Positions 19,889 to 64,000 are shown, counted from the first letter of the stretch. The stretch: DNA of 64,000 nucleotides from Massalongia carnosa (GCA_965645245.1 OZ287078.1:1612001-1676000); one strand, 5' to 3'. Made by a program: numbers and translations. Notes: generated by a model from the letters alone, not told the origin.

Positions 19889-20899
19889 AATAGGTGAAAA
19901 CAGAGTTGACGAGGTAAGATTGTTACATAAAACCAATTCTATTGAAATTGATACAGGTCTGAGCTCTATTGTGTCCGATCGAATCAATCGTAACGCCTTA
20001 CATCTAGCGTCCTGCCTTCCTTAGAACTCGCCCTGGCTAGCTCAACAAGTCGTATTATTGAAGCTGCATCGTTTGCCTTGACCGGGACGTCACCTTCCCC
20101 TGATAAAGCCTGGGCGAATTGACTGTAGAAGGTCCTGTATGTAAGTGGTTCGATATTATGATGGACTGCTCGAGTTGGTTCGCCATCTTTTATTGTGGTC
20201 AAAATGCCTTGAACCAGTCAGTCTAATCATCACAGATATATTCTAAGATTGACACACCATGCCGCTCTTCCGCTTCCATCCCAAATCCAGCGTCTCCCGG
20301 TCTCTTCCCTTCCTTGAGCTGATCTTCTTGACAATCCAAATGGAACTAGCAGGTACATTAAAATAATGCGTAAACCTAAAGCCGAACACCCACCTTTCTG
20401 TAGCTTCCTTTGTCCCCTCTAACCCAATATCTTAGCTGCTCCTCCTCGATGCTGATAACAGCAGCCTTCACTGTTGCGAGCATACCATCATAATGGAGCA
20501 GTACTGTGCAGGAATCCTCGTAGCTATTGATATTACTCTCCCTTTGAGATCCAATAAAGCCAGTGATCTTATTTGGCATTCCAAACGTTAGTACTATTTG
20601 ATCTATCAAGTGAGTCCCGAGATCATAGATAACTCCTCCGCCAGGTCGCTTCTCTGTCTTCCATCCTCCACTGGTGGCTACTGGCCGATGACGATCAAGG
20701 TGCGTTTCGAACGAGATGCTTAGGGACAGTCCCCCCCCTGTGTAAATCTTTGCTAGTAAACAGCCATTTCACTGCTCAAGGGTGCGTACAAGCTAGTACT
20801 CTAATGCAACTGCCAACAGCACATTAAACTCTTTTCGGTTTAAATCGTATGACGTGTTTATTGCTAATAATAATTACCCTACTCGGTCTGATAACTCAA

Positions 20900-21765
<866 letters not shown>

Positions 21766-21869
21766 ACACTTACCATTTGCCCTTACCCTTGTCCTAACCC
21801 TTTTCCCTGTCTAAATCTCTCCTTCCACTTATGCTATACCTCATTATATTTTTTACTACTCCTCATCGC

Positions 21870-22720
21870 GATGGAGTTCGATCCCACTTCTTTGGATGCA
21901 CGAAAGCAACATGTCATTGCCCTTCTATCCTCATCTCACCTCCTTCCTCCGCAAGAAAATGAGTTATTTTCGTCTTGAAAGAAGGCAAAGACTCGTCTTC
22001 AAGACTATGCCTTCACTCAATGCTTCGCGTTGGTCACAGAAACTCACGATAAGAAAAGCCATTTAATCGTATTAGACTACACACGCCATCACAAAAGAGT
22101 TAGAAACACTAGAAAAGTAGAGGAGGAAGACCGGGTGCGAGCCAATACCAAAGTTTCGTTCAATGAGTGCCCTTATCGCCTCCGTCTCAAAAAAAAAAAA
22201 AAGACAATGCATGGAGACCAATAGTCACTAACTCCGAGCACAATCATGAGATGGCCACTGATCCCTTTGCATTCAGAGAACATAGTAGGGACCCTGATCG
22301 AACAGATGCCCTAGATCAAGGGAAGAGTCTCCGTGCATCGTCAACCCAATATGGCCAAGCAGCGAGAATATTAGGAATCCAAGGACTCCGTCTGTCGAGG
22401 AGCGATTAGTATAATCTCGCTCATTCGGAGGGAGCTCACACACCTGAAGAAGAGCTTCTTTTTGCCTTGGGCTCGTTGAAAGACAGGGGCTTTCATGTAC
22501 GGTGCAAGGAAAATATATTGTTAAGAATAATGTGCGTGAGAGACGGGTGATAGAACATTTTTTATTTTGCAATGCGGAGCAAATTAGGCTGGCTCGACGT
22601 TTCGTGGGTGGATTTCTATTAGAGACGGGATGCAACGTTCAATACTAATATATTGAAGCTGCCTTTATTCGTTTTGGTTGGAATCACTAACACCGACCTT
22701 TCGTTTCTCGTCGCTTATTG
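21870..22720 (+). pseudogene. MULE transposase remnant (FAR1/WRKY-GCM1-type DNA-binding region plus start of the DDE domain)
   Basis: LQDYAFTQCFALV...ECPYRLRL...WRPIVTNSEHNHEM, later TFNTNILKLPLFVLVGITNT-like; stops, frameshifts and an internal deletion. Confidence 0.8.
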
Positions 22721-24269
22721 CTATATAACTTAATCCTACCTCAGGCAGCGCAGCCACTATCTCTTTATAGTCTTAGCCAAAACGTGCGCGCCAGTCAAAT
22801 TCTCCCTACTTCCTCTGCAACAACGCGAAGGTCTCGGGGTGTGGCGAAGAAATCAAAGGCTCAGTTGGAGTTGGGATATCAGCAAAGAGTCGAGAGATCA
22901 GTCAAACAGGCTAGGGCTCAAGCGAGAAAGGAAACGGCGATGAGAAAGGTGGCTAAAACCATGAAGCCTAGAAAAGATGATGTATCGCAATTGGCTGACG
23001 AGTTTTTGGAGTTGAGGTCATCGCAATCGTAGATTTGTAGGTGTTCAATACACTTAGTCAGTAACAGCAACATTATTAATACGTAGTGTAACTGCTAGCT
23101 TGTACGCACCCTGGATGAGTAGTAAAATGGCTGTTTACTAGTAAATATTTACACAAGGGGGGGACGGTCGGGGGGGGACTGTCCCTAAGCATCTCGCGTT
23201 TCGAACTCCAAGAGCCCCATCCCGGATTAAACTCATCAGCGTGATGAAATCCGTATCCCACCTCCGATCTTTCGAACTTATTAGTAAGATCAGACCAATA
23301 ATGAAGGTTTCTCACTCTGATAGACCGTAATGAGTCGCTGGTTTCGTTCTGCGATGCTTATTAGCTCGTTAGCCTCATCATAAGTTGGCGTAAACGGCTT
23401 TTCTACGATCACTAAGGCCAAAATCAGGTTCCATAATCAGAATCAGAATCAAGTGCTTCTCTTTCTGCACTACCATGCTTTCCATTTTCCAACGCCAGTT
23501 TTGTTAATGAAAAGTGCGATTCTGGTGTAGTTGTAATAACAGCCACATCAATAGCTGCATCTTTAACCACCTCTTCAGTTGATCTGTAGGTCTTAATACC
23601 TGGATGGTCTATCTTTGCATCATCTGGTGGCTTTGGGCTCCTTTGAATAACAGCATACAACCTGAATTGGGAGACAGCTTCTATTAATGGAATATGGAAC
23701 ACTTTAGCAGACAAGCCGTAACCAATGACGCTGACATTGTACTTTGGAGAGGTCATTTTTCAGCATAAGAAATCGATAGCCAAGCAAGGTGAGTTTCTTC
23801 GAAGAAACCTTCAATCATGTTCCACCGCAGCAACGTAACATGTCCCGAGCGATGACAGCATTGGGACGCCAACGCCGGGCCGGCCAAAACTACGCTCTGC
23901 AGGGCACGTATAAAGGCATACTTGAGATTTATGCTGGATCCTTCCTGGGCGTTTGAATAGGTTATGTACAACTAATGTCACATGACTAGAGTCACTGGGT
24001 TTGCTAAGCGATTCAGCTGGATTGGTGTCTCTCTTAGGGTCAGTGTACGGTAATGTCATTGCTCCAAGCTGTTTAGGAGGCCTAATCTAAGGAGCGATGG
24101 ATTATCTGCTTACACCTCTTTAGTCTCTCTTATGTTGCTTCCACGACAATCATACCCATTGATGGCTTCGGCCTATAAAGTGGGAGAACCGGATCGACTC
24201 AATGCACGCTATTGTCATGGAAGGCTGCCTCATCATCGACCGACGTCCGCTGAATGGCAGCACGGCCAC

Positions 24270-43456: not shown

Positions 43457-44553
43457 TTATCGGTGATACTCCGCTTCCGGAAAATTCACTCGTCCGCCAC
43501 CACCGTTGGGGCCATGGCTCAACGCCAAATCGTCCCGGAAGGGATCGCCACTACGGTAGGCAGTGCCCGCGTCGCCCGCATCGTAGACATTCTTTCGCAC
43601 AGGAGGCACATGTTCCTTGAACGGATTGTTGGCGGGGGCTTTCCGGGATAATCGATCATGGTTGTTGGTGCGTCCGCCGTGATAGCTCGTATCGGCATCA
43701 TGTAGAACCTGGCCCACGCCCGGTGCGCTAGGACTGTGTTCGCGGCCCCAACTCAGTGGGCGGCCCGGGTGGGTGCCGTCTTCGGTGTCCGTGTGCAGGA
43801 GCGCGTATTGGTCGTCATCGCGGCGCCGGGGCGGACGGGCGGTAGAATTATCTTCGAGGTCTTCGTCGAGGTCGTCGTGCGGGTTGGCTGAAAAGGCGTA
43901 TTTGGTTTGGTCATCTTCCACCGGGCCTGAGGCACGGGTGGGGCCAGGGAGAACTCCGGTCCGGCGGAAGTCAAGGAGGTTCTTTATTGAGATGCCGGTC
44001 GTCGCGATGAAGAGAAAGCTGAGCCAAGCGTGTTAAGGATGAAGTAAGTGAACATAAGTCGAGGGGGAGGAAGGCACATACAATATCAGAACACCTGTCC
44101 ATACCGTAGCTCTACTAAGTGTACATTTACTATCAGGGCCGTACGCAAATGCTGCGCAACCGCCCTTGCCTTTTCCTTTGACATCTCCCGCCTTAATGCC
44201 GGAGTTCGTCCATGCCGCCACCGCTATCAGAGCTGCGAACCAAAGAATGGTGAGCAATATGTCGACGATGGCAAAGGCATACGGATTTACGAATTTCCTG
44301 GTTCGTTCGAAGATTGGGACGGCTGTTTGATAGATGAGAGCAGGGATACAGAACAGGCACTATTTATTCTCTTATGAGCATTGGGAAATTTCCTTGCCTG
44401 GAGAATGCTTACCAGCGTGAAATAATATTTGCTTCGTCCATCCGTTTGGCCGGTCTTAGTGAAAACGGCGATTGTTAAGACCCAAGATATGAAGATGATC
44501 AGCGCCTGAAGTCCATGAATGGCGTTTTTCCCTCTTTGCAGGTTATTGCTCAT
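43457..44553 (-). CDS. MARVEL-domain membrane protein (3 exons)
   Basis: Four TM segments (IHGLQALIIFISWVLTIAVF; ILWFAALIAVAAW; C..F.YG...KC), then a cytoplasmic tail QTKYAFSANPHD; two introns. Confidence 0.75.
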
Positions 44554-54905: not shown

Positions 54906-55291
54906 AGCGCGAGGAGTCTCTGAGCTATTCTTTGGTGAAGGTTTGGTGTTATTGGAAGCTCACAAGCTGCTTCATTGAAGGGACGTTATAGACCTCGCCA
55001 TGTAGAAGCCGCCCACAGTTTTCAATGACAATCTCAATGTATATTTTATGGTTTATGAAGGTGACTCGGATAGCTACGGAACTTGCCGTAAAGCAGTTAA
55101 CAGCCTATGAATTAGCGTAGCTAGCAGCTAGTAAAGCTCGAGCTAAACCGTAATAGGGCCTTGGCTTAAGAGGGTATTTTGAGTGATCAATGCATCACCA
55201 TCGAGCATCGTGGATCTGTCTGGAGTTTATCTGAACCGTAAGTTTTTCTTCCTATTCTTTACAGTTTACTCATTGGTAGCTCTCTAGTATC

Positions 55292-55630
55292 ATGGCACCT
55301 CCTCGAGGCAACCTTACAGGCTTCGATCTGCGCAAGTTTGTTGCCGCTACTGGGCTGCCTGCCAAAGATCCTTGGGCACGAGCGTATGTAATCTTTTACA
55401 GCGCAGAAAATAGAGCCCTGTGTGAGACGTTTGGCTGATTTAATCGGGCACATAGAGAGCATTGGCGATACACGGGTCCTTTCACTAGGTTCAATCGATT
55501 TAAAGGTGCATTTCCTGGCCTGGGAATAGCAACTGTCGCTTTCACAGTATACTGTGGCTACGAATATCTTTTCCTATCCGGCAAAACCCATGGACATGCA
55601 GAATCGAGTCAGGACGAAGGGCATCATTGA
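55292..55630 (+). CDS. NDUFB3: NADH:ubiquinone oxidoreductase B12 subunit (NDUFB3)
   Basis: Not in the ORF track. Exons 55292-55383 and 55456-55630 give MAPPRGNLTGFDLRKF...DPWARAEHWRYTGPFTRFNRFKGAFPGLGIATVAFTVYCGYEY...HH*; divergent from CAF1. Confidence 0.88.
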
Positions 55631-57836
55631 AGTTGGCACCCGCTCGGTCGGGGAACATAAACCTGGAGGATACCCACGGAGGATTTGCCAGCATGTATAG
55701 CTCTATATTGAACTTTCAGAAACCAGTATTGTATATGTCAAATCTGTTGGTCACTCAATCATCGATTAGACGCTTGACCTTAGGCCCGAAGTCTAGCGAG
55801 CAGGAATAATGAATGAGCATGGAGTGAGAATTCTACTAACCCACTCTGGGATGGCTCAAGCGATGAGCGCTTCGCTGAGAGCTGGTCGAAAGAAAAGCCG
55901 ACGTTCGTATGAAGCAAATAGATGGTATCATGTATAAAGTAGATAACTGAACATACATCTTCAGGCTAAGGGATTGAGATCCTCAGAATCAAGGAAGCCG
56001 TGTGTTTCCTTGCTTTCATGCAGGACTTTTGTCAAGAAGACAGACACCTGCGCCGGTCTCACTCATGATTAAAGAAAATAATATGGTGTGTTGAGATATT
56101 CTCAGTTACGCTCAGGGGTAACTGCCTTACAATAGTTAGTCTAATGATGCTGAAACTTTTAACGATCATTAAGCCTACCAACTACATGACACAGAAAGAA
56201 GAAGAAAAAGAGAGATATCTCGTATTGCATTGATATGATTGGGCTGGCCGGATTGTACAAAGTACATAAATGTCTTTGTCTCGCGTCTCACCTATTCATG
56301 ACAACACAATCCCTTCATCACATTGTTTGGCTCATTTTATTTCTTCGGCTTCAGCTTCCCATGTTTTGAATCGGGGTAAATTTGCTGCTTCGATGTGGTA
56401 ACCCGCTTGAAGTAGGGTTCAAAAAGCTTACTTACTTCGTATTAAGAGCCGTTTCCTGCAACACCAGTTATAATCAATAGAGAGCAAGTCCTATAACGGA
56501 TTGAATGCCAGCCGGGTATGCAATTATCTCAAATGATTTCTTTGAAATCATGTACAAATACGGGTATACATCATCTGGAGTCAGAAATTGGATTTCTAAA
56601 GTAACAATCTGATCTTACATCATTTGTTTTTGAGCATGTACGCTTCTTGGAATCAAGATATTTCCATTGTGATAAGTCTTCTTATCTTGTCGAATGCACC
56701 TTGGAAGTTCTCTCTTGATCACTAAAATGATCATATCCTCTATTATTACCTTTCCTTCACTGTCAGCAATCTGTGTAAGTCTAAATTTCGCCTTGTGCGA
56801 ACTTACACTTCATTGCCGTTCCTACTTGTTTCGCAAAGCTACCTCCTCTCTTCAGCACGGTGTTCTGGGCTTCTTCCTACTTGCTGCTCTTCCAGCTGTC
56901 GTAGCAATGCCCAAGCCACAGAGCTTGGCTGCGGTTTTCCCTGACTCTGCGGATGACAGCACTTCTGACATCACAGCGATATTACCCCCCCAAACCGCCA
57001 TCAAACTGTGAGAGGTCTCCTCTATCATATTGCGTAGAGGGCGGCGAACTCCGTAAGCAACTTTCTTATAAACGGATGCTTCGCAAGTTCATCGAGACCC
57101 TTGTTTTTTCTCTTAGGTTTTTGTCATTCATATAGGACCAACGTAAAATATAGCCCGAAACACAGCTGTAGTCGTCGAACCTGGTGAACCCTGCAAATTC
57201 GACAGGCCGCAATCTGCTGCAATCAATCGCGACTTGAACGGGGGGATGATTAGGCGACTAGGTCTGGAACGAGGTCAACACGTGGGACTTTGTATATGAA
57301 GCCGCTGCCATTGTCGGTATAGGTGCACTTTATTATTCGATGTTGACGCTGCAACAAAAATCATAAGTAAATGGAAAGTCAAGAACGCGGTATCCTGAAT
57401 TCTGATTACTCTTTTGACTTTGCTCAGACAGAGAACTTCGAAACTGTTGCAACTAAAACTACTGGAGACGAAATCATAATGCTTTGACAATTGATAAATT
57501 TGTTTGAAAGATTTATATGTAAAAAGAAAACTGTTGAGAAATGAAAAAAAATAAGAAATATTTGATTCTATGTTTCCAAAAATTTATTAATAAAAGCGAT
57601 TTCAATAGGGGGCAAGAAAAACTCCGTTTCCCAACCAATTAAAGAGTGCCGCAACTGGATAGTGTGGTACTTGATGCCCTCCACTTCCTGATACCTTCCC
57701 CCTCCGTTGTTGGCTGCCATCGTAACTCTCAGCTGCTCCTCCCTCGTGACTGTGACTACAAATCCGTATTCTACCCTTCTTCTAACGTTCAATCTATACT
57801 CATCAAACCGCATCCAGGCTCTTAAGCTGTAAGGCG

Positions 57837-58640
57837 GTGTTACTGTTTTTGCTGGCCCGCTCTCTCCTTTCCTTATTTACCCTCAGCCTCTCTAACCCTA
57901 GCACATATTGTCAGACTGCATGCTGGCAAAATCACGAAAGGGGTAACCAGCTCGAGTTGTCCAGACTCAACTGGGAAGGAATTACCGGTCTGTGGATGCG
58001 TCCTAATCTGTCAAAAGATCTTACGATCGTTGGAAGCACAATAAACTGCACTGGGTCTTACTTCCCAATCGGTGACCAGCTGATGACCGACGCTACCGAC
58101 AAAGCAAATTAATTTATAAGCTTCAGCAGCTTCGTCCCCATATGCTATTCTTCAATGCAAGATTGGCCGTTGGACAAAGGTGCTTTTTCGAAGGCCATTC
58201 TCTTATGTATGCGGTGATAGTTGGGCAATGAGACAATAGAATTCTTCAGAGAAGCAAAATTCCAGTCTTAGGTCACAGTGGAAGATAGGAAGGGCGTAGC
58301 TGAAGCATGTCAACCCAGCTTTCAGCTAGATAAAGCTGCGCCAATTCAAGTCTAACAGGCCTTCTGCAAGCTCGGATAGCATTTTTCCAACGAAAATTAT
58401 TCGGGGGGAAGTTGATAGTCCAAAAACATCAACTTTATCGAAAACGGGATATTTACTGGGCTGACATGGACAAAATAGTTTCAGCGATATAGAAAGAATG
58501 GTAAGAGTTTAAATGAGATTAGCTGCTTCGTGTGCAACGAAAGCCCAATTAGATTGAAGATCGAAGGTCGACAAAAGGAGTTTATACACTGTTCTAGGTT
58601 CACTAAAGGAATAGGTACGGACTATGTCCAGAAGACGTGC
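57837..58640 (+). pseudogene. Possible decayed secreted protein gene
   Basis: Signal-peptide-like start (LLARSLLSLFTLSLS) followed by broken frames; family not recognised. Confidence 0.3.
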
Positions 58641-58867
58641 AAGAGATTCAATTTTCAGGATGATAGCCCAGTTAGATAATCTCTAGCCTAGTATATGACA
58701 GGACAGTGAATTAATGTGTGGCTAGAGATAGCTTACGATGTTTGACATCGATTTCATTGCCTGGGTACAAAGATAGCTCAGAAAAAAAACACACATAGTA
58801 ATACGTGATTTAAATCCTTAAATTAATTTTGAAATAAATATTGAAATTTGTATCAAAATATGTATAT

Positions 58868-59013
58868 GGTCGGGTGGTGTAGGTATGTCTAATCCCAAAT
58901 TTCCTTAGTGATTGAATGCAACGTAGTTAACAGTTGATAAAGTTGGTTATCACATCTCCTTAACATTTCGTGTGGCACGGAGAAGGTCTAGGGTTCGAAC
59001 CCCTACCTGATCA
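58868..59013 (+). tRNA. tRNA-Val(AAC): tRNA-Val(AAC) with two introns: 60-nt spliceosomal-type insert at position 15/16 (58883-58942) and 12-nt canonical intron at 37/38 (58966-58977)
   Basis: Spliced: GGTCGGG TG GTGTAG|TTGGTTATCAC A TCTCC TTAACA|C GGAGA AGGTC TAGGG TTCGAAC CCCTA CCTGATC A. All four stems pair, the B-box GGTTCGAACCC is intact, and a T5 Pol III terminator follows at 59014-59018. Confidence 0.9.
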
Positions 59014-59310
59014 TTTTTACATTTTTGATGCTATTTTTGAGCTTTTGCAACAATAACATCGCTATTTATTCAATCAACTTATGAAGGGGTCGAAGAGTCG
59101 GACTTTGTCCGGCTTTAGTGTTAGGATAAACTGCAAATCAGTCTTACTATATATTTCCTTGCTCCACTTCTTTCCGCCTCACCGCATCTCACGTGATTGA
59201 TTTAACTAGCTTGCTGCCAATGAGCTTGGTTTTCACACTATCGAAACTCTGGCTCGTCACTACTTGGAGCGGGCCCACCTTCTCGAACCTTTAAAGATAA
59301 CTCAGTAGGT

Positions 59311-61062
59311 ATGGAGGAGGACGAAATAACCATCGAAGAAGACGAGGCTGTCAAACAGTTTCTTCCTACCGGATTTGGCAAGCAAACGAAGCAGATAAAC
59401 GTTGTAAAACAGCTGGAGAAGAGCAAACGGGTGGTGGTTTCGGAGCAGGTTGAGCTTTCAAGTGCTATATCAGCAGGCGAAGAGAGTAATAAGAATGGCT
59501 CGGACAATGAGGATGAAGACGAGGATGCGGATGACGAAGACGAGTTTCCAGTGTCCCACGAACTGACCTTAAAAACCCACGAGCGCACTGTAACCACCTT
59601 GACGGCTGATCTCTCAGGATCTCGGTTAGTTACTGGCTCCACAGACTGCACAGTTAAATTCCACGATTTCGCGTCTATGACCCCGACTACGCTACGAGCC
59701 TTCAAGTCGGTCGACCCTACAGCGACAAAGGCTTCCGCGAACTCGGAAACACATCCTGTAAACCACGTGGAATTCAATCCGCATTCTCCAAGTCAACTGC
59801 TTGTCATCTCGGCCACGCCTCAAGCAAAGATTCTTAGCCGAGATGGCGAGGTACTCACGGAATTCGTCAAGGGTGACATGTATCTTAGGGATATGCACAA
59901 CACCAAAGGCCACATCTCTGAGATTACCACCGGCACATGGCATCCTACCGATAAAAATCTCTGCGTTACTGCTGGAACGGACAGCACGCTCCGGATCTGG
60001 GACACAAACTTTAAGCGTACTCAAAAGGACATAATTGTGCATAAATCCCGAGCAGCAGGGTCTGCGGGAAGGACAAGGATGACAGCTGTAGCATGGGGCT
60101 CTCCAGCTCAAGGTGGTAGCAGTATTCTTGTCGCGGCGGCTTTGGATGGCAGTCTTGTAATGTGGGGGGGAGATGGGCCGTTTACAAGACCTATGGCTGA
60201 GGTTAGAGAGGCGCACAAGAAAGGCACCTGGACTGGAGGACTGGCTATCAGTATGGACGGGAGAACTGTGGTTACCAGAGGAGGGGATGATCTAATAAAG
60301 CTTTGGGATACGCGGAAGTTCAAGCTACCCGTCAGCGTTGTTGAGCACCAGTCTACCTCTGACCAATACGCACAGACGGATATTCGATTCTCTCCGAATT
60401 CGTCGTGTATTATCACAGGCTCAGCGACGGGGCGTCTTCACATTCTAAATCCGGCGACCCTGAAACCCGAACTCGTCACTCCTGTCACGCCTGGATCACC
60501 GCTCATCACAGTTCTCTGGCATGATAAGTTGAACCAAATTGTTACTGGTTCGGCCAATGCAGAAACGCATGTGCTTTATAATCCGAGCATATCGACTCGT
60601 GGGGCAGCTATGGTCATGTCGAAAGCGCCCAAGCGACGGCATATTGACGATGATCCAACCCTAACAACAAATCTTACCCAAGGGATATCCGGGGAAAGCA
60701 TTATCACTCCGAATGGTCTTCTTACCAGTAATAATCAGGTATCGGCAAGTTACGCTGCGCGCCATCCTACGCTAGGTATGACGGCTTCGGGAAGATCTCG
60801 GGATCCAAGGCGACCGCATATCCCCATGACTACCCCATTTGCGAAAAGCCAGCCGGACGAGAACCACATAAAGAATAATATTCCGCTTAGTTCCATGCGT
60901 GACGAAGATCCAAGAGAAGCTCTGTTGAAATACGCCGAGAAAGCAGAGAAGGATCCCATGTTCACCAATGCTTGGAAACATACCCAGCCGAAAACAATAT
61001 ATGCGGAGTTGAGCGAAGAGGAAGATGAAGGACCGGAGAAGAAAAAACCGAAGCGGCCTTGA
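59311..61062 (+). CDS. WDR70: WD40 repeat protein WDR70/Gad1-like
   Basis: QFLPTGFGKQ, FPVSHEL, KGDMYLRDMHNTKGH, RGGDDLIKLWDTRKFK, EDPREALLKYA motifs. Confidence 0.9.
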   Translation: MEEDEITIEEDEAVKQFLPTGFGKQTKQINVVKQLEKSKRVVVSEQVELSSAISAGEESNKNGSDNEDEDEDADDEDEFPVSHELTLKTHERTVTTLTADLSGSRLVTGSTDCTVKFHDFASMTPTTLRAFKSVDPTATKASANSETHPVNHVEFNPHSPSQLLVISATPQAKILSRDGEVLTEFVKGDMYLRDMHNTKGHISEITTGTWHPTDKNLCVTAGTDSTLRIWDTNFKRTQKDIIVHKSRAAGSAGRTRMTAVAWGSPAQGGSSILVAAALDGSLVMWGGDGPFTRPMAEVREAHKKGTWTGGLAISMDGRTVVTRGGDDLIKLWDTRKFKLPVSVVEHQSTSDQYAQTDIRFSPNSSCIITGSATGRLHILNPATLKPELVTPVTPGSPLITVLWHDKLNQIVTGSANAETHVLYNPSISTRGAAMVMSKAPKRRHIDDDPTLTTNLTQGISGESIITPNGLLTSNNQVSASYAARHPTLGMTASGRSRDPRRPHIPMTTPFAKSQPDENHIKNNIPLSSMRDEDPREALLKYAEKAEKDPMFTNAWKHTQPKTIYAELSEEEDEGPEKKKPKRP

Positions 61063-62570
61063 ACTTCACGACGAGCGATGTCGTTGTCATGCTCTACGGG
61101 TCTCATAAAGGTGATTATGGTGAGGCCCTTTTGTGGAAAGACCACATACATCCGCTGTGGCTTTACATTGCCAAGCGGCCCAATTCTGTAAGTATCATCT
61201 CAAACTTCATTTACGAAAGTGCATTCATTCATCTAGCGCAGTGGCATACCTAGTATTCCAGGTTTTGGGATTCGTTAAGGTGTGGTTTTTGCTCCAGTTC
61301 GAGAGTGTTTGAAAAATTCTACTAAACCAGCAGCCAGCAGAAAAGTGCAAACTCTGCACGAGGGTCAAAAGAGACTGTATTCTGACGAAACACAAATCCG
61401 GTCCATTTACTTGTTGGCATCTCCGAAACTAGGATCTCTGCAGTAGCCAATGAGCGACTCGACGGATAACCCCATTAGTCAGAATGCGATATCAGAGGCC
61501 ATTTGGACTCGCTCAGCACTCCTTCCTTTGCCGTTTTCTTCCATACCCGATCGATGCCTGGGGGTTTTTACAGCTCGATAGGGTGAAGAATGAGAGTTAA
61601 CCCGGAAATGAAGTAAAAAACTTGGTTTCCTTAGCAAGCCTTAATTAGGCTTTAATCTAATTTGGGTGTAGATTAGTTGCTTACACGCTTTACGCTATCT
61701 TGTTAAATAGTATCTTAGACTCAAAACCGCCCTACTACATTGTCCTGTACAGTATCGATTTTCCACAACTACTTGTCCGCTGAAACCTATCTATCCATCC
61801 ATCCATCCATCCCAAAGCTCGCCTCTCGGAAAAATATCAGCATATCTTTGGTTTTATCTATAACTACCTACCTACCTTAAAATGGACTGAGCACACAACC
61901 CTCCCCCCTCTTCCCCTCCCCCAAATCACCCACCCGCCTGTACTACCTATCGATTAGTATTCGCTCACCAACAGGACTCGGAAAACAAGATGGCTAGCTA
62001 GCTGCGATTGGGGATTAGTTGATTACAGGAGCGGGGGTTGTGATATGAGAGACAATGGTGAGAGATGGATGGGGGTTAGTGGGGGAATGAAGAAGAAGGA
62101 GGAAAAGAAAGGATGTGGGAACCAGGGAGGATTGGGAAATTTTTGACTAAGGAAAGGCTTCTCCAATCCCGAGAGAGAGAGAGGGAGAAACTTATTCTGA
62201 AATCGTCAGGGCGGAAAGCGAAACCCTTGCTTTTCGTACTACATGTACCCCCGAACGACCAGGTGATATATATGTACCGGGAGCGAAAAAGAAAAGAGGG
62301 GTATATAAGTTCGGTATTTAACTATAGCACCGTACACATTTTATATGCAGGCCGAAGAGAATGATGGATGTGGACATATCAGGAGAAACCCCTGGCAACG
62401 CTCATTACACTCGAGAACAGCCCCGTCAATAAATATTTCATACCGCATAATCTTGCCGTGGCGCCAGGATCCTCGTCGATGTTCCGCGTTGCAGGAAAGT
62501 ATATATGTATGGAATAGGCCGTATAATAGGTGGATAAAGAGGTGAGGTGGTAGGTATGTTTGGCCTTGTC

Positions 62571-64000
62571 TCACGGACGGGTGTCAGTCCCCGAATAATC
62601 ATTATCATTTGTGTCTCCGCCGCTGCCACCATTGCTTTTCTGCCGGTTCCGCTCGATACGGAAGAATTCTCCTAGCGTCGCGTTCATGCTCTGTGATCGC
62701 GCTTGGCGAGATGACATGCGCGCCTCGCCCGCAGGCTCCTGAGCGCTCTTCAGGGGCGAGGAGAGACCGCCGTCCGCCTCCCCCGCAGCGGATTCCCCAG
62801 GGCTACGGTGCGACCTCAACGTTTGCAAGCCTGGCAGCCGTGACCGTCTCCGAAAAGTTGGCGAGTCCAAGCCCCGGCGTAACGAGTCCGCCACGATGGC
62901 GCTCAGGGGGGAAGATAGCGGCGCAATGTATGGCCCAGGCATCATTCTGGAAAGTGAGTTCCTCGATAACGTGGCGGGTCGATTGGCTTTCTCGTATGAT
63001 TGCCGTCGCGGACTTTGGCCTTGTGGCATGGTGAGGCATGAACGTTGCGCTTCAGAAGGTAGCAAGGGGGAGGAGATTGTATTGTCGAACGGTCTTGGTC
63101 TTGGGGGCGGGGTGGATACGTCTTCTAGTGTTCGCCAGGGGTTTTTAAGTAGAGGTGCATCCGGTCCTTCGGTTTCTTCCACAAGCGCGTTGGAGCCCGT
63201 GGAGGATATGGAGCGTGGCGTTTTTGAGGTTGACTCAGATTGTCGCCGAGAGGAGCTTTTGTAGTAATTGAGGCTCGGCCCCTCATGTGCAGATCCCATG
63301 GATTTTTGCCTAATGCGGTCTTCCTCGCTGTTAGCGTCTTCGTATTGCTCTTCGTCTACTAGACCAATTCCTTCTTCTTCATCAACACCGTCCATGTGGT
63401 CGTGCCCCTCCTTACCTCCCGTTCTTCCACTGGTGATGAGATATACCCCAAGAAATGTCAAAGCACAGCCACCGATGAACTTTCCAAACTGGTCAGCCGT
63501 GGCAGATTTGAAATCGCGGTACAGAACAGCACTCCCAATGATGACGGAAAGTGTAAAGAGGACAAATTGAGTAGGGATTACTTGAGTCGAATCAAATCTT
63601 TGAAGAGCTCGGTTGACATATCGAATCTGGAGAAATGCTGTAACGACAAGAACGAATACAAGAAGATAGGTAATAGGAAACGTGAGAGTACGCCAGAGAG
63701 TATCGGAAAGGAGGGATGCAACACCCTTGGTTGATAAAGCCGTATAACCTCCTATAAATACTTTAGCAGGGAAAATGCAAGGCAACAAGTTTTAATTACC
63801 AAAAAGCCCTACAAGGCCCAGGTCAATCAGAATCGACTTCTCTCCATATTTCCCACTAACCCACATTAAAACAATCATGAATGCAGCGGTAATGCCTAGA
63901 TATAGCTCAAACTCCCATCGGGTTATCGCAGACCATAGCTCATGCGGTCCCATCTTTGATTCCGAGTTGTTGGCACTCAATACAACAGTCACTGCTCCGC
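62571..64000 (-). CDS. NIPA/DUF803 magnesium-transporter-like protein, 3' part (5' end outside window)
   Basis: ILIDLGLVGLFG|GYTALSTKG, QIRYVNRALQRFDSTQVIPTQFV..TLSVIIGSAVLYRDF; intron ~63752-63798. Confidence 0.88.

Follow-up and report, generated by a model that had tools for sequence, protein, structure and literature searches.

Introduction

In textbooks, tRNA introns and spliceosomal introns are separate systems with separate substrates. Introns of the mRNA type have also been described in genes for non-coding RNAs, and these are the closest natural relatives of the case described here. Fungal U6 genes contain up to four spliceosomal introns per gene, with canonical signals and with insertions that are often species-specific (PMC5855946). 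The mRNA-type introns of U6 go back to Tani and Ohshima (1989, 1991) and were taken up again by Canzler et al. (2016), as summarised in the same paper (PMC5855946). Spliceosomal introns are also found in U1, U2, U5 and rRNA genes (PMC5855946); the examples it cites are the U1, U2 and U5 genes of Rhodotorula hasegawae and the rRNA genes of ascomycetes (Takahashi 1993, 1996; Bhattacharya 2000). According to this source most introns in ncRNA genes still need experimental validation, and its passages on the hosts of spliceosomal introns make no mention of tRNA (PMC5855946).

The introns of eukaryotic tRNA genes lie almost always at the 37/38 site, and they are recognised by a ruler mechanism (PMC4090602). 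Ectopic tRNA introns have been confirmed in nucleomorphs and in Cyanidioschyzon merolae, where they depend on a bulge-helix-bulge (BHB) motif (PMC4090602). Insertions in the D-arm or T-arm of one of many synonymous eukaryotic tRNA genes, according to the part of this 2014 review that deals with them, are usually regarded as pseudogenes (PMC4090602).

Full-text literature searches returned no published spliceosomal intron in any tRNA gene, with U6, U1, U2, U5 and rRNA as the listed precedents. This agrees with an earlier note on the DNA studied here, whose author knew of no established case. In this study, we analysed a 64-kb stretch of DNA, referred to below as the window, in which a tRNA-Val(AAC) gene is interrupted in its D-loop by a candidate intron of the spliceosomal type.

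A tRNA-Val(AAC) gene in three pieces

Reading the plus strand of the window, we found a complete tRNA-Val(AAC) gene in three pieces at 58868-59013. Exon 1 (58868-58882) covers positions 1-15, that is, the 5' strand of the acceptor stem, T8 and G9, the 5' strand of the D-stem, and A14 and G15. Between positions 15 and 16 lies an insert of exactly 60 nt (58883-58942), which begins with GT and ends with AG. Exon 2 (58943-58965) continues with the remainder of the D-loop, TTGGTTA, followed by the 3' strand of the D-stem, the 5' strand of the anticodon stem and the anticodon loop as far as A37, and it includes the anticodon AAC at 58962-58964. A second interruption of 12 nt (58966-58977) occupies the 37/38 site; it is the canonical tRNA intron and the expected substrate of the tRNA splicing endonuclease, TSEN. 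Exon 3 (58978-59013) consists of C38, the 3' strand of the anticodon stem, the variable loop AGGTC, the T-arm TAGGG/TTCGAAC/CCCTA with its B-box (58989-59005), and the 3' strand of the acceptor stem, with the discriminator A at 59013 as its last base. All of these features lie on the plus strand, as do two T5 runs directly downstream, at 59014-59018 and 59022-59026. Pol III terminates at T runs, which is our basis for calling these two runs terminator-like.

Overall, the exons carry not a single disruptive change. The stems measure 7/4/5/5 bp and all 20 canonical pairs are standard, while positions 13 and 22 are both T, here and in an independent Val(AAC) gene described below. The invariant residues T8, A14, G18, G19, T33, G53, T54, T55, C56, A58 and C61 are all present, and so is the B-box, GGTTCGAACCC. 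The insert cuts the A-box after G15 and parts A14-G15 from G18-G19, which now lie 60 nt further downstream. In promoters of the TFIIIC type, a split A-box should weaken transcription. The gene structure is as the earlier note had read it, namely a tRNA-Val(AAC) cloverleaf cut after G15 by 60 nt at 58883-58942 (ARAGORN calls Val(AAC) after excision), a separate 12-nt intron at 37/38 (ARAGORN -i likewise reports an intron of 12 nt), and an intact set of stems, B-box and terminator, of which we found all 20 stem pairs, the B-box and both T5 runs in place.

Contigs from four sets of sequencing runs cover the region with identical DNA and no joints, and they are uninformative about variation or conservation; three of the sets (X1-X3) belong to one study and may be the source of the window itself. 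The contigs of X1-X3 each span 2 kb in one piece, and the pieces of the fourth set (X4) stop at 58907 and resume at 58937, bridging neither junction under a 31-letter rule. Loose contig ends also appear at 59509-59543, where the neighbouring WDR70-like gene encodes an acidic low-complexity Asp/Glu run; we attribute them to this run, since it draws short unrelated contigs from the sequencing runs.

Gene finders and the identity of the tRNA

The intact locus is invisible to the gene finders that we used. ARAGORN reported no genes in the untouched 64-kb window, whether introns were allowed or not, and an Rfam scan by E-value over 55000-64000 gave no matches, neither for the tRNA locus nor for a small RNA within the insert. 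Once 58883-58942 had been excised by coordinates, ARAGORN -i found a tRNA with a 12-nt intron, and when both inserts had been excised, ARAGORN called tRNA-Val(AAC). The earlier note had proposed running tRNAscan-SE with and without 58883-58942, and had expected standard scanners to miss or mis-score such genes. In our runs ARAGORN is silent on the intact locus and finds a tRNA after excision, and ARAGORN and Rfam are both blank at the tRNA-Val locus.

When the D-loop insert alone was excised, ARAGORN -i slid the 12-nt intron two bases upstream and reported Ala(AGC). This misassignment arises because the placement of the 12-nt intron is ambiguous and a non-canonical placement was chosen. Placing this intron at 37/38 gives Val(AAC), which fits the likeness of the exons, 61 of 74 positions, to a second Val(AAC) gene that is described below. 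In addition, the 3:70 pair is T-A and there is no G3:U70, which argues against an alanine identity.

We scanned both strands of the 64 kb for T-arms, defined as a 5-bp stem with a TTCRA loop, and obtained two. In the 350 nt upstream of each we looked for a complementary 7-nt acceptor strand with a T after it, and the T-arm at 58989 alone has one. Its partner is the 15-nt piece lying 121 nt upstream, and this piece, exon 1, is the sole acceptor-complementary 7-mer plus T within that distance. The tRNA-Val locus is not a chance match. The same scan of both strands showed no other split tRNA within the window.

A comparison was provided by an independent gene from an environmental metagenome (locus L001), for which ARAGORN reports Val(AAC) and an anticodon-loop intron of 17 nt; this intron lies at 37/38. 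The two genes are identical at 61 of 74 positions. Ten of the 13 differences amount to five stem pairs altered on both sides with pairing preserved, and neither gene has lost any of the 20 standard pairs. Judged from this comparison, the exons of tRNA-Val behave evolutionarily like a tRNA.

Two features of the metagenome locus itself (L001:150-296, minus strand) deserve mention. It has A in place of T at position 54, giving the T-loop ATCGAGC. A stray piece ending in CCGTGGTGTAG is located 58 nt upstream of the gene and resembles the first 15 nt of a tRNA; either a 9-mer match by chance or a partial duplication of the 5' part could account for it.

Splice-like signals in the 60-nt insert

The insert opens with GTATGT (58883-58888, plus strand), a hexamer like a 5' splice site that is preceded by exonic TAG and fits GTRNGY. 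The earlier note had claimed that this donor is shared with the NDUFB3 intron at 55384, and both do begin with GTATGT; the same hexamer also starts a candidate intron on the minus strand, 44081-44019. Further into the insert, the branch-like TTAAC (58927-58931, plus strand) fits YTRAY and is a variant of CTRAY that is one off the consensus, and its A58930 is located 12 nt from the insert's end. In two local candidate introns, 44081-44019 and 30169-30087, the best candidate for the branch is likewise TTAAC. Within the insert, YTRAY motifs occur at 50, 12 and 5 nt from its end. The last three bases, AAG (58940-58942, plus strand), resemble a 3' splice site of a minority type: the AG is present, and the base before it departs from YAG. 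Fungi do use AAG acceptors, at low frequency. A decoy CAG at 58931-58933 lies 3 nt past the proposed branch A and 9 nt upstream of the acceptor, and its use would leave 9 extra nt in the D-loop. GTTAAC at 58926-58931 and the AAG end, both named by the earlier note, are read in the sequence as it had described them.

The candidate intron at 44019-44081 (minus strand, 63 nt) combines the donor GTATGT with TTAAC 14 nt from its end and ends in CAG. Beyond the donor and branch motifs, it has no sequence similarity to the tRNA insert.

The insert has 33% GC. Its longest T run is 3, so it contains no run of four or more, and T5 runs follow the gene. This makes the insert compatible with the passage of Pol III.

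As a yardstick we used 13 local candidate introns in mRNA genes, namely the NDUFB3 intron and 12 others picked by hand from a filtered search that joins ORFs; the set is not unbiased. A first version of the search that required GT...AG only was too noisy, and the filtered version still lists alternatives. Conserved protein motifs served as a check on two of the 13, the NDUFB3 intron 55384-55455 and the CAF1 intron 54434-54376, whose removal joins ...YPYISM to sequence of the DTEFPG type. The candidates range from 44 to 110 nt, and the insert of 60 nt falls inside this range, which bears out the claim that its size resembles that of local mRNA introns, as far as 13 hand-picked candidates can represent them. 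Their donors are GTATGT (2 of the 13), GTATGC, GTGCGT, GTACGT, GTACGC, GTGAGT, GTGAGC, GTAAGC and GTGGGT. The best YTRAY lies 9-32 nt from the end of the candidate introns, with TTAAC as the best motif in 2 of the 13, and the corresponding distance in the tRNA insert is 12 nt. All 13 candidates end in CAG or TAG, compared with AAG in the tRNA insert, although the picking by hand may have favoured YAG ends. Runs of four or five T occur in 4 of the 13, compared with a longest run of three in the insert.

The position of the boundary needed to be treated with care. Both exon 1 and the insert end in AG, and the boundary can therefore slide by 0, -1 or -2 nt, so that GT...AG is one of three equivalent registers. 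The earlier note had argued that precise removal of GT..AG restores the D-loop. This is true, but it is true of any insertion, and the informative part is that GT...AG occurs among the three registers. We then counted how often such a sequence appears in the window under a relaxed intron rule, according to which a 60-mer starts with GTRNGY, has YTRAY 6-40 nt from its end and ends with AG. On both strands, 5 of the 127,880 60-mers pass this rule, the insert among them, and 2 of the 127,880 have the form GTATGT...AG. Taken empirically from the 60-mers of the window, the chance of a match to the relaxed rule over three registers is about 1.2e-4. The ends and the size of the insert match those of local spliceosomal introns far better than chance.

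Surroundings of the gene and search for further cases

The tRNA-Val gene lies at the right end of a stretch of about 3.4 kb (55800-59200) between the NDUFB3-like and WDR70-like genes. This stretch has no ORF longer than about 110 codons, its GC content is lowered, at 0.37-0.46 per 500 nt, and its RIP indices are unremarkable. RIP-type mutation of the region was considered and dropped, as the composition indices were unremarkable. Elsewhere in the window, the 4-kb bin at 20001-24000 shows a GC skew of -0.339, with all other bins between -0.054 and +0.093.

The 64-kb window holds no second copy of the insert, and the best other match is 11 nt. At the ends of the insert no terminal inverted repeats are readable, and the flanking repeat is the 2-nt AG only. 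Within the 64 kb, an origin of the insert from a mobile or introner-like element is unsupported.

For cases outside the window, a metagenome collection was scanned with a pattern in which nt 7-15 and 16-25 of Val(AAC) are separated by 40-70 nt, with YTAACA downstream. In this collection, whose comparable fungal genes are uncounted, the scan gave one match, L001, which is not a D-loop intron. We rejected it as a second case: the Val(AAC) gene there is complete and ordinary, and the 9-mer that the pattern hit 58 nt ahead of it is a stray match. Prokaryote and viral collections contained no match to the split Val(AAC) pattern. A search of the prokaryote genomes for uninterrupted fungal-type Val(AAC) genes was equally blank, and the prokaryote and viral blanks are uninformative because no comparable uninterrupted gene occurs there either. 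The suggestion in the earlier note that a whole class of such genes may be hidden thus drew no support from these scans: the window has no other split tRNA, and the lone metagenome match is an ordinary Val(AAC) gene.

A possible route from gene to mature tRNA

By its signals and by its origin, the insert is probably of the intron type. A further step is to propose that a filamentous-type ascomycete has here a genuine nuclear gene for tRNA-Val(AAC), which acquired a U2-type GT-AG intron and still yields mature tRNA. From the sequence, we place this proposal just short of an even chance. The reading as a spliceosomal intron, made first in the earlier note, stands in part: the donor, the branch motif, the size and the absence of a BHB speak for it, and the AAG acceptor, the decoy CAG and the split A-box speak against it.

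Under this proposal, Pol III would transcribe tRNA-Val from the intact B-box and the split A-box and would stop at the T5 runs. In the nucleus, U1 would pair with TAG|GTATGT and the spliceosome would branch at A58930 in TTAAC. G15 would then be joined to T16 at the AAG acceptor, and the D-loop AGTTGGTTA would be restored. The L-shaped body could form only after the insert had been removed; TSEN would subsequently measure from this body and cut out the 12-nt intron. As for its origin, the insert would most likely have come in when an excised intron was reverse-spliced into the tRNA, or when repair captured it at AG microhomology; the site of insertion is the AG| of the universal A14-G15. Such an origin is also the one proposed for the introns in fungal U6, U1, U2, U5 and rRNA genes (PMC5855946). 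Several points tell against a working pathway: the AAG acceptor, the decoy CAG, the split A-box, a 5' exon of 15 nt with a short uncapped leader, the usual treatment of D-arm insertions as pseudogenes (PMC4090602), and the metagenome scan, which yielded no true second case.

Alternative explanations

The rival that survives best is that we are looking at a disabled copy. Reverse splicing, capture during DNA repair or an introner-like element would recently have brought intron-type sequence into one of many synonymous Val(AAC) genes; this copy would not be processed into tRNA, and its exons would be intact simply for want of time to decay. We regard this as quite possible, although clearly below an even chance. 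The loss of one copy of a multi-copy isoacceptor would be nearly neutral, and the split A-box, the weak AAG acceptor and the nearby decoy CAG count in favour of this reading. Neither the window nor the metagenome pattern scan has a second example, and the default in the field, as far as the review covers it, is to treat D-arm insertions in eukaryotic tRNA genes as pseudogenes (PMC4090602). The state of the gene points the other way. Its 20 stem pairs, its invariant residues, its B-box and both terminators are intact, and the insert is free of any T4+ run that would stop Pol III. Moreover, working copies far outlast dead copies that still look intact, so that an intact copy met at random is more likely to be a working one, if this argument holds. 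It also weighs against the disabled copy that fungal Pol III transcripts can carry spliceosomal introns, U6 being an example (PMC5855946).

The remaining explanations fare much worse. It is very improbable that the tRNA sits within a Pol II transcript, be it an upstream ncRNA or the WDR70-like mRNA with a long 5' UTR, in which case the 60 nt would be spliced like any other Pol II intron and the tRNA would either be freed afterwards by RNase P and RNase Z or have no bearing on the matter. The usual coupling of splicing to Pol II and the geometry of the locus are favourable to this idea: the tRNA gene is on the same strand as the WDR70-like WD40 gene (59311) and ends 298 nt before its ATG. However, between the tRNA and this ATG come two T5 runs and, near 59148-59156, a stretch that is AT-rich and TATA-like. 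They make it less likely that the tRNA lies inside the WDR70-like transcript, and suggest instead that the promoter of the WDR70-like gene is downstream of the tRNA, which has a B-box and a terminator of its own.

Still less credible is that the insert is a non-canonical tRNA intron cut by the tRNA splicing endonuclease or by another non-spliceosomal activity. There are parallels, in that ectopic D-arm introns with confirmed excision occur in the tRNAs of a few eukaryotes (PMC4090602, PMC3728597). The earlier note had named a BHB-like structure as the sign that TSEN cleaves the insert. We looked for the motif (3-nt bulge, 4-bp helix, 3-nt bulge) in three registers and two arrangements, and it was absent from all of them; the central helix reached 0-3 of 4 pairs and the flanking helices were poor. 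The fold of the 146-nt precursor was no better than that of shuffled controls (z = -0.56). In addition, published descriptions of fungal TSEN have it measure from the mature body (PMC4090602), and this body is unable to form while the D-loop is split.

Finally, a random insertion (filler DNA or a transposon footprint) that acquired splice-like ends by chance is hardly tenable: the three-register ambiguity triples the chance of GT...AG, and the branch motif and AAG are weak, but even so 5 of 127,880 60-mers pass the relaxed rule, or about 1.2e-4 over three registers, and the insert has neither readable terminal inverted repeats nor another copy in the window.

What splicing of this gene would mean

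We return to the proposal that the tRNA-Val gene has acquired a spliceosomal intron and is still functional. It would be a natural tRNA gene that needs two unrelated machineries, the spliceosome for its D-loop and then TSEN for its anticodon loop, and more cases that would escape tRNAscan-SE, ARAGORN and Rfam may exist in fungi and other eukaryotes; we put this forward tentatively, at somewhat under an even chance. If the insert is spliced, the spliceosome acts on a pre-tRNA in nature, and the reach of mRNA-type introns in ncRNA genes extends beyond snRNAs and rRNA to tRNA. The order of tRNA maturation would be imposed, with the spliceosome before TSEN, and the requirement of one small RNA for two splicing systems would be an unusual feature. 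Such a case would also matter for the idea that introns are gained by reverse splicing, and it would mean that all standard tRNA finders share a blind spot. If, on the other hand, the copy is dead, the locus would be a tRNA pseudogene that records a clean, datable insertion of intron-type sequence into a gene outside Pol II, which would help to estimate how blindly intron gain operates.

Comparison with known systems

Splicing of the U6 intron of Schizosaccharomyces pombe is established, whereas the tRNA-Val insert is known from sequence alone. With fungal U6, as the available account describes it, the locus shares a short GT...AG intron with a canonical 5' splice site and branch, in the gene of a small, structured Pol III ncRNA; in both, the intron interrupts a conserved part of the RNA, and reverse splicing is the proposed origin (PMC5855946). 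It differs in that its host, a tRNA, stands outside the spliceosome and has no special proximity to the active site, and in that tRNA-Val has a second intron, of the TSEN type. The snRNA genes of R. hasegawae and the rRNA genes of ascomycetes likewise have a spliceosomal-type intron in the gene of an abundant ncRNA, and rRNA is not a product of Pol II (PMC5855946). By contrast, tRNA-Val belongs to another RNA class and is assigned to another polymerase than U1, U2, U5 and rRNA, none of which needs a second splicing machinery.

Among tRNA genes, those of C. merolae, of cryptophyte and chlorarachniophyte nucleomorphs and of archaea resemble ours in carrying two or more introns, with one in the D arm (PMC4090602, PMC3728597). 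As described there, their introns depend on a BHB or are very short (3-24 nt in nucleomorphs), and they have no GT...AG and branch signals (PMC4090602, PMC3728597). The tRNA-Val insert, unlike these, is 60 nt long, has no BHB and has ends that look like splice sites. Eukaryotic tRNA pseudogenes are similar to it in that a D-arm insertion affects what is probably one of several synonymous copies (PMC4090602). The insert differs from the D-arm and T-arm insertions of such pseudogenes in its intron-grade ends and in having no T4+ run, and the exons around it are without a disruptive change.

There is also an engineered counterpart. Kohrer, Vogel and Domdey (EMBO J 1990) reportedly observed that an artificial yeast pre-tRNA carrying the actin intron was spliced by the mRNA pathway. 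That construct and the tRNA-Val gene would have in common a Pol III pre-tRNA as a possible substrate of the spliceosome. The construct, however, is said to have carried its intron in the anticodon loop, whereas tRNA-Val is a natural gene with its insert in the D-loop.
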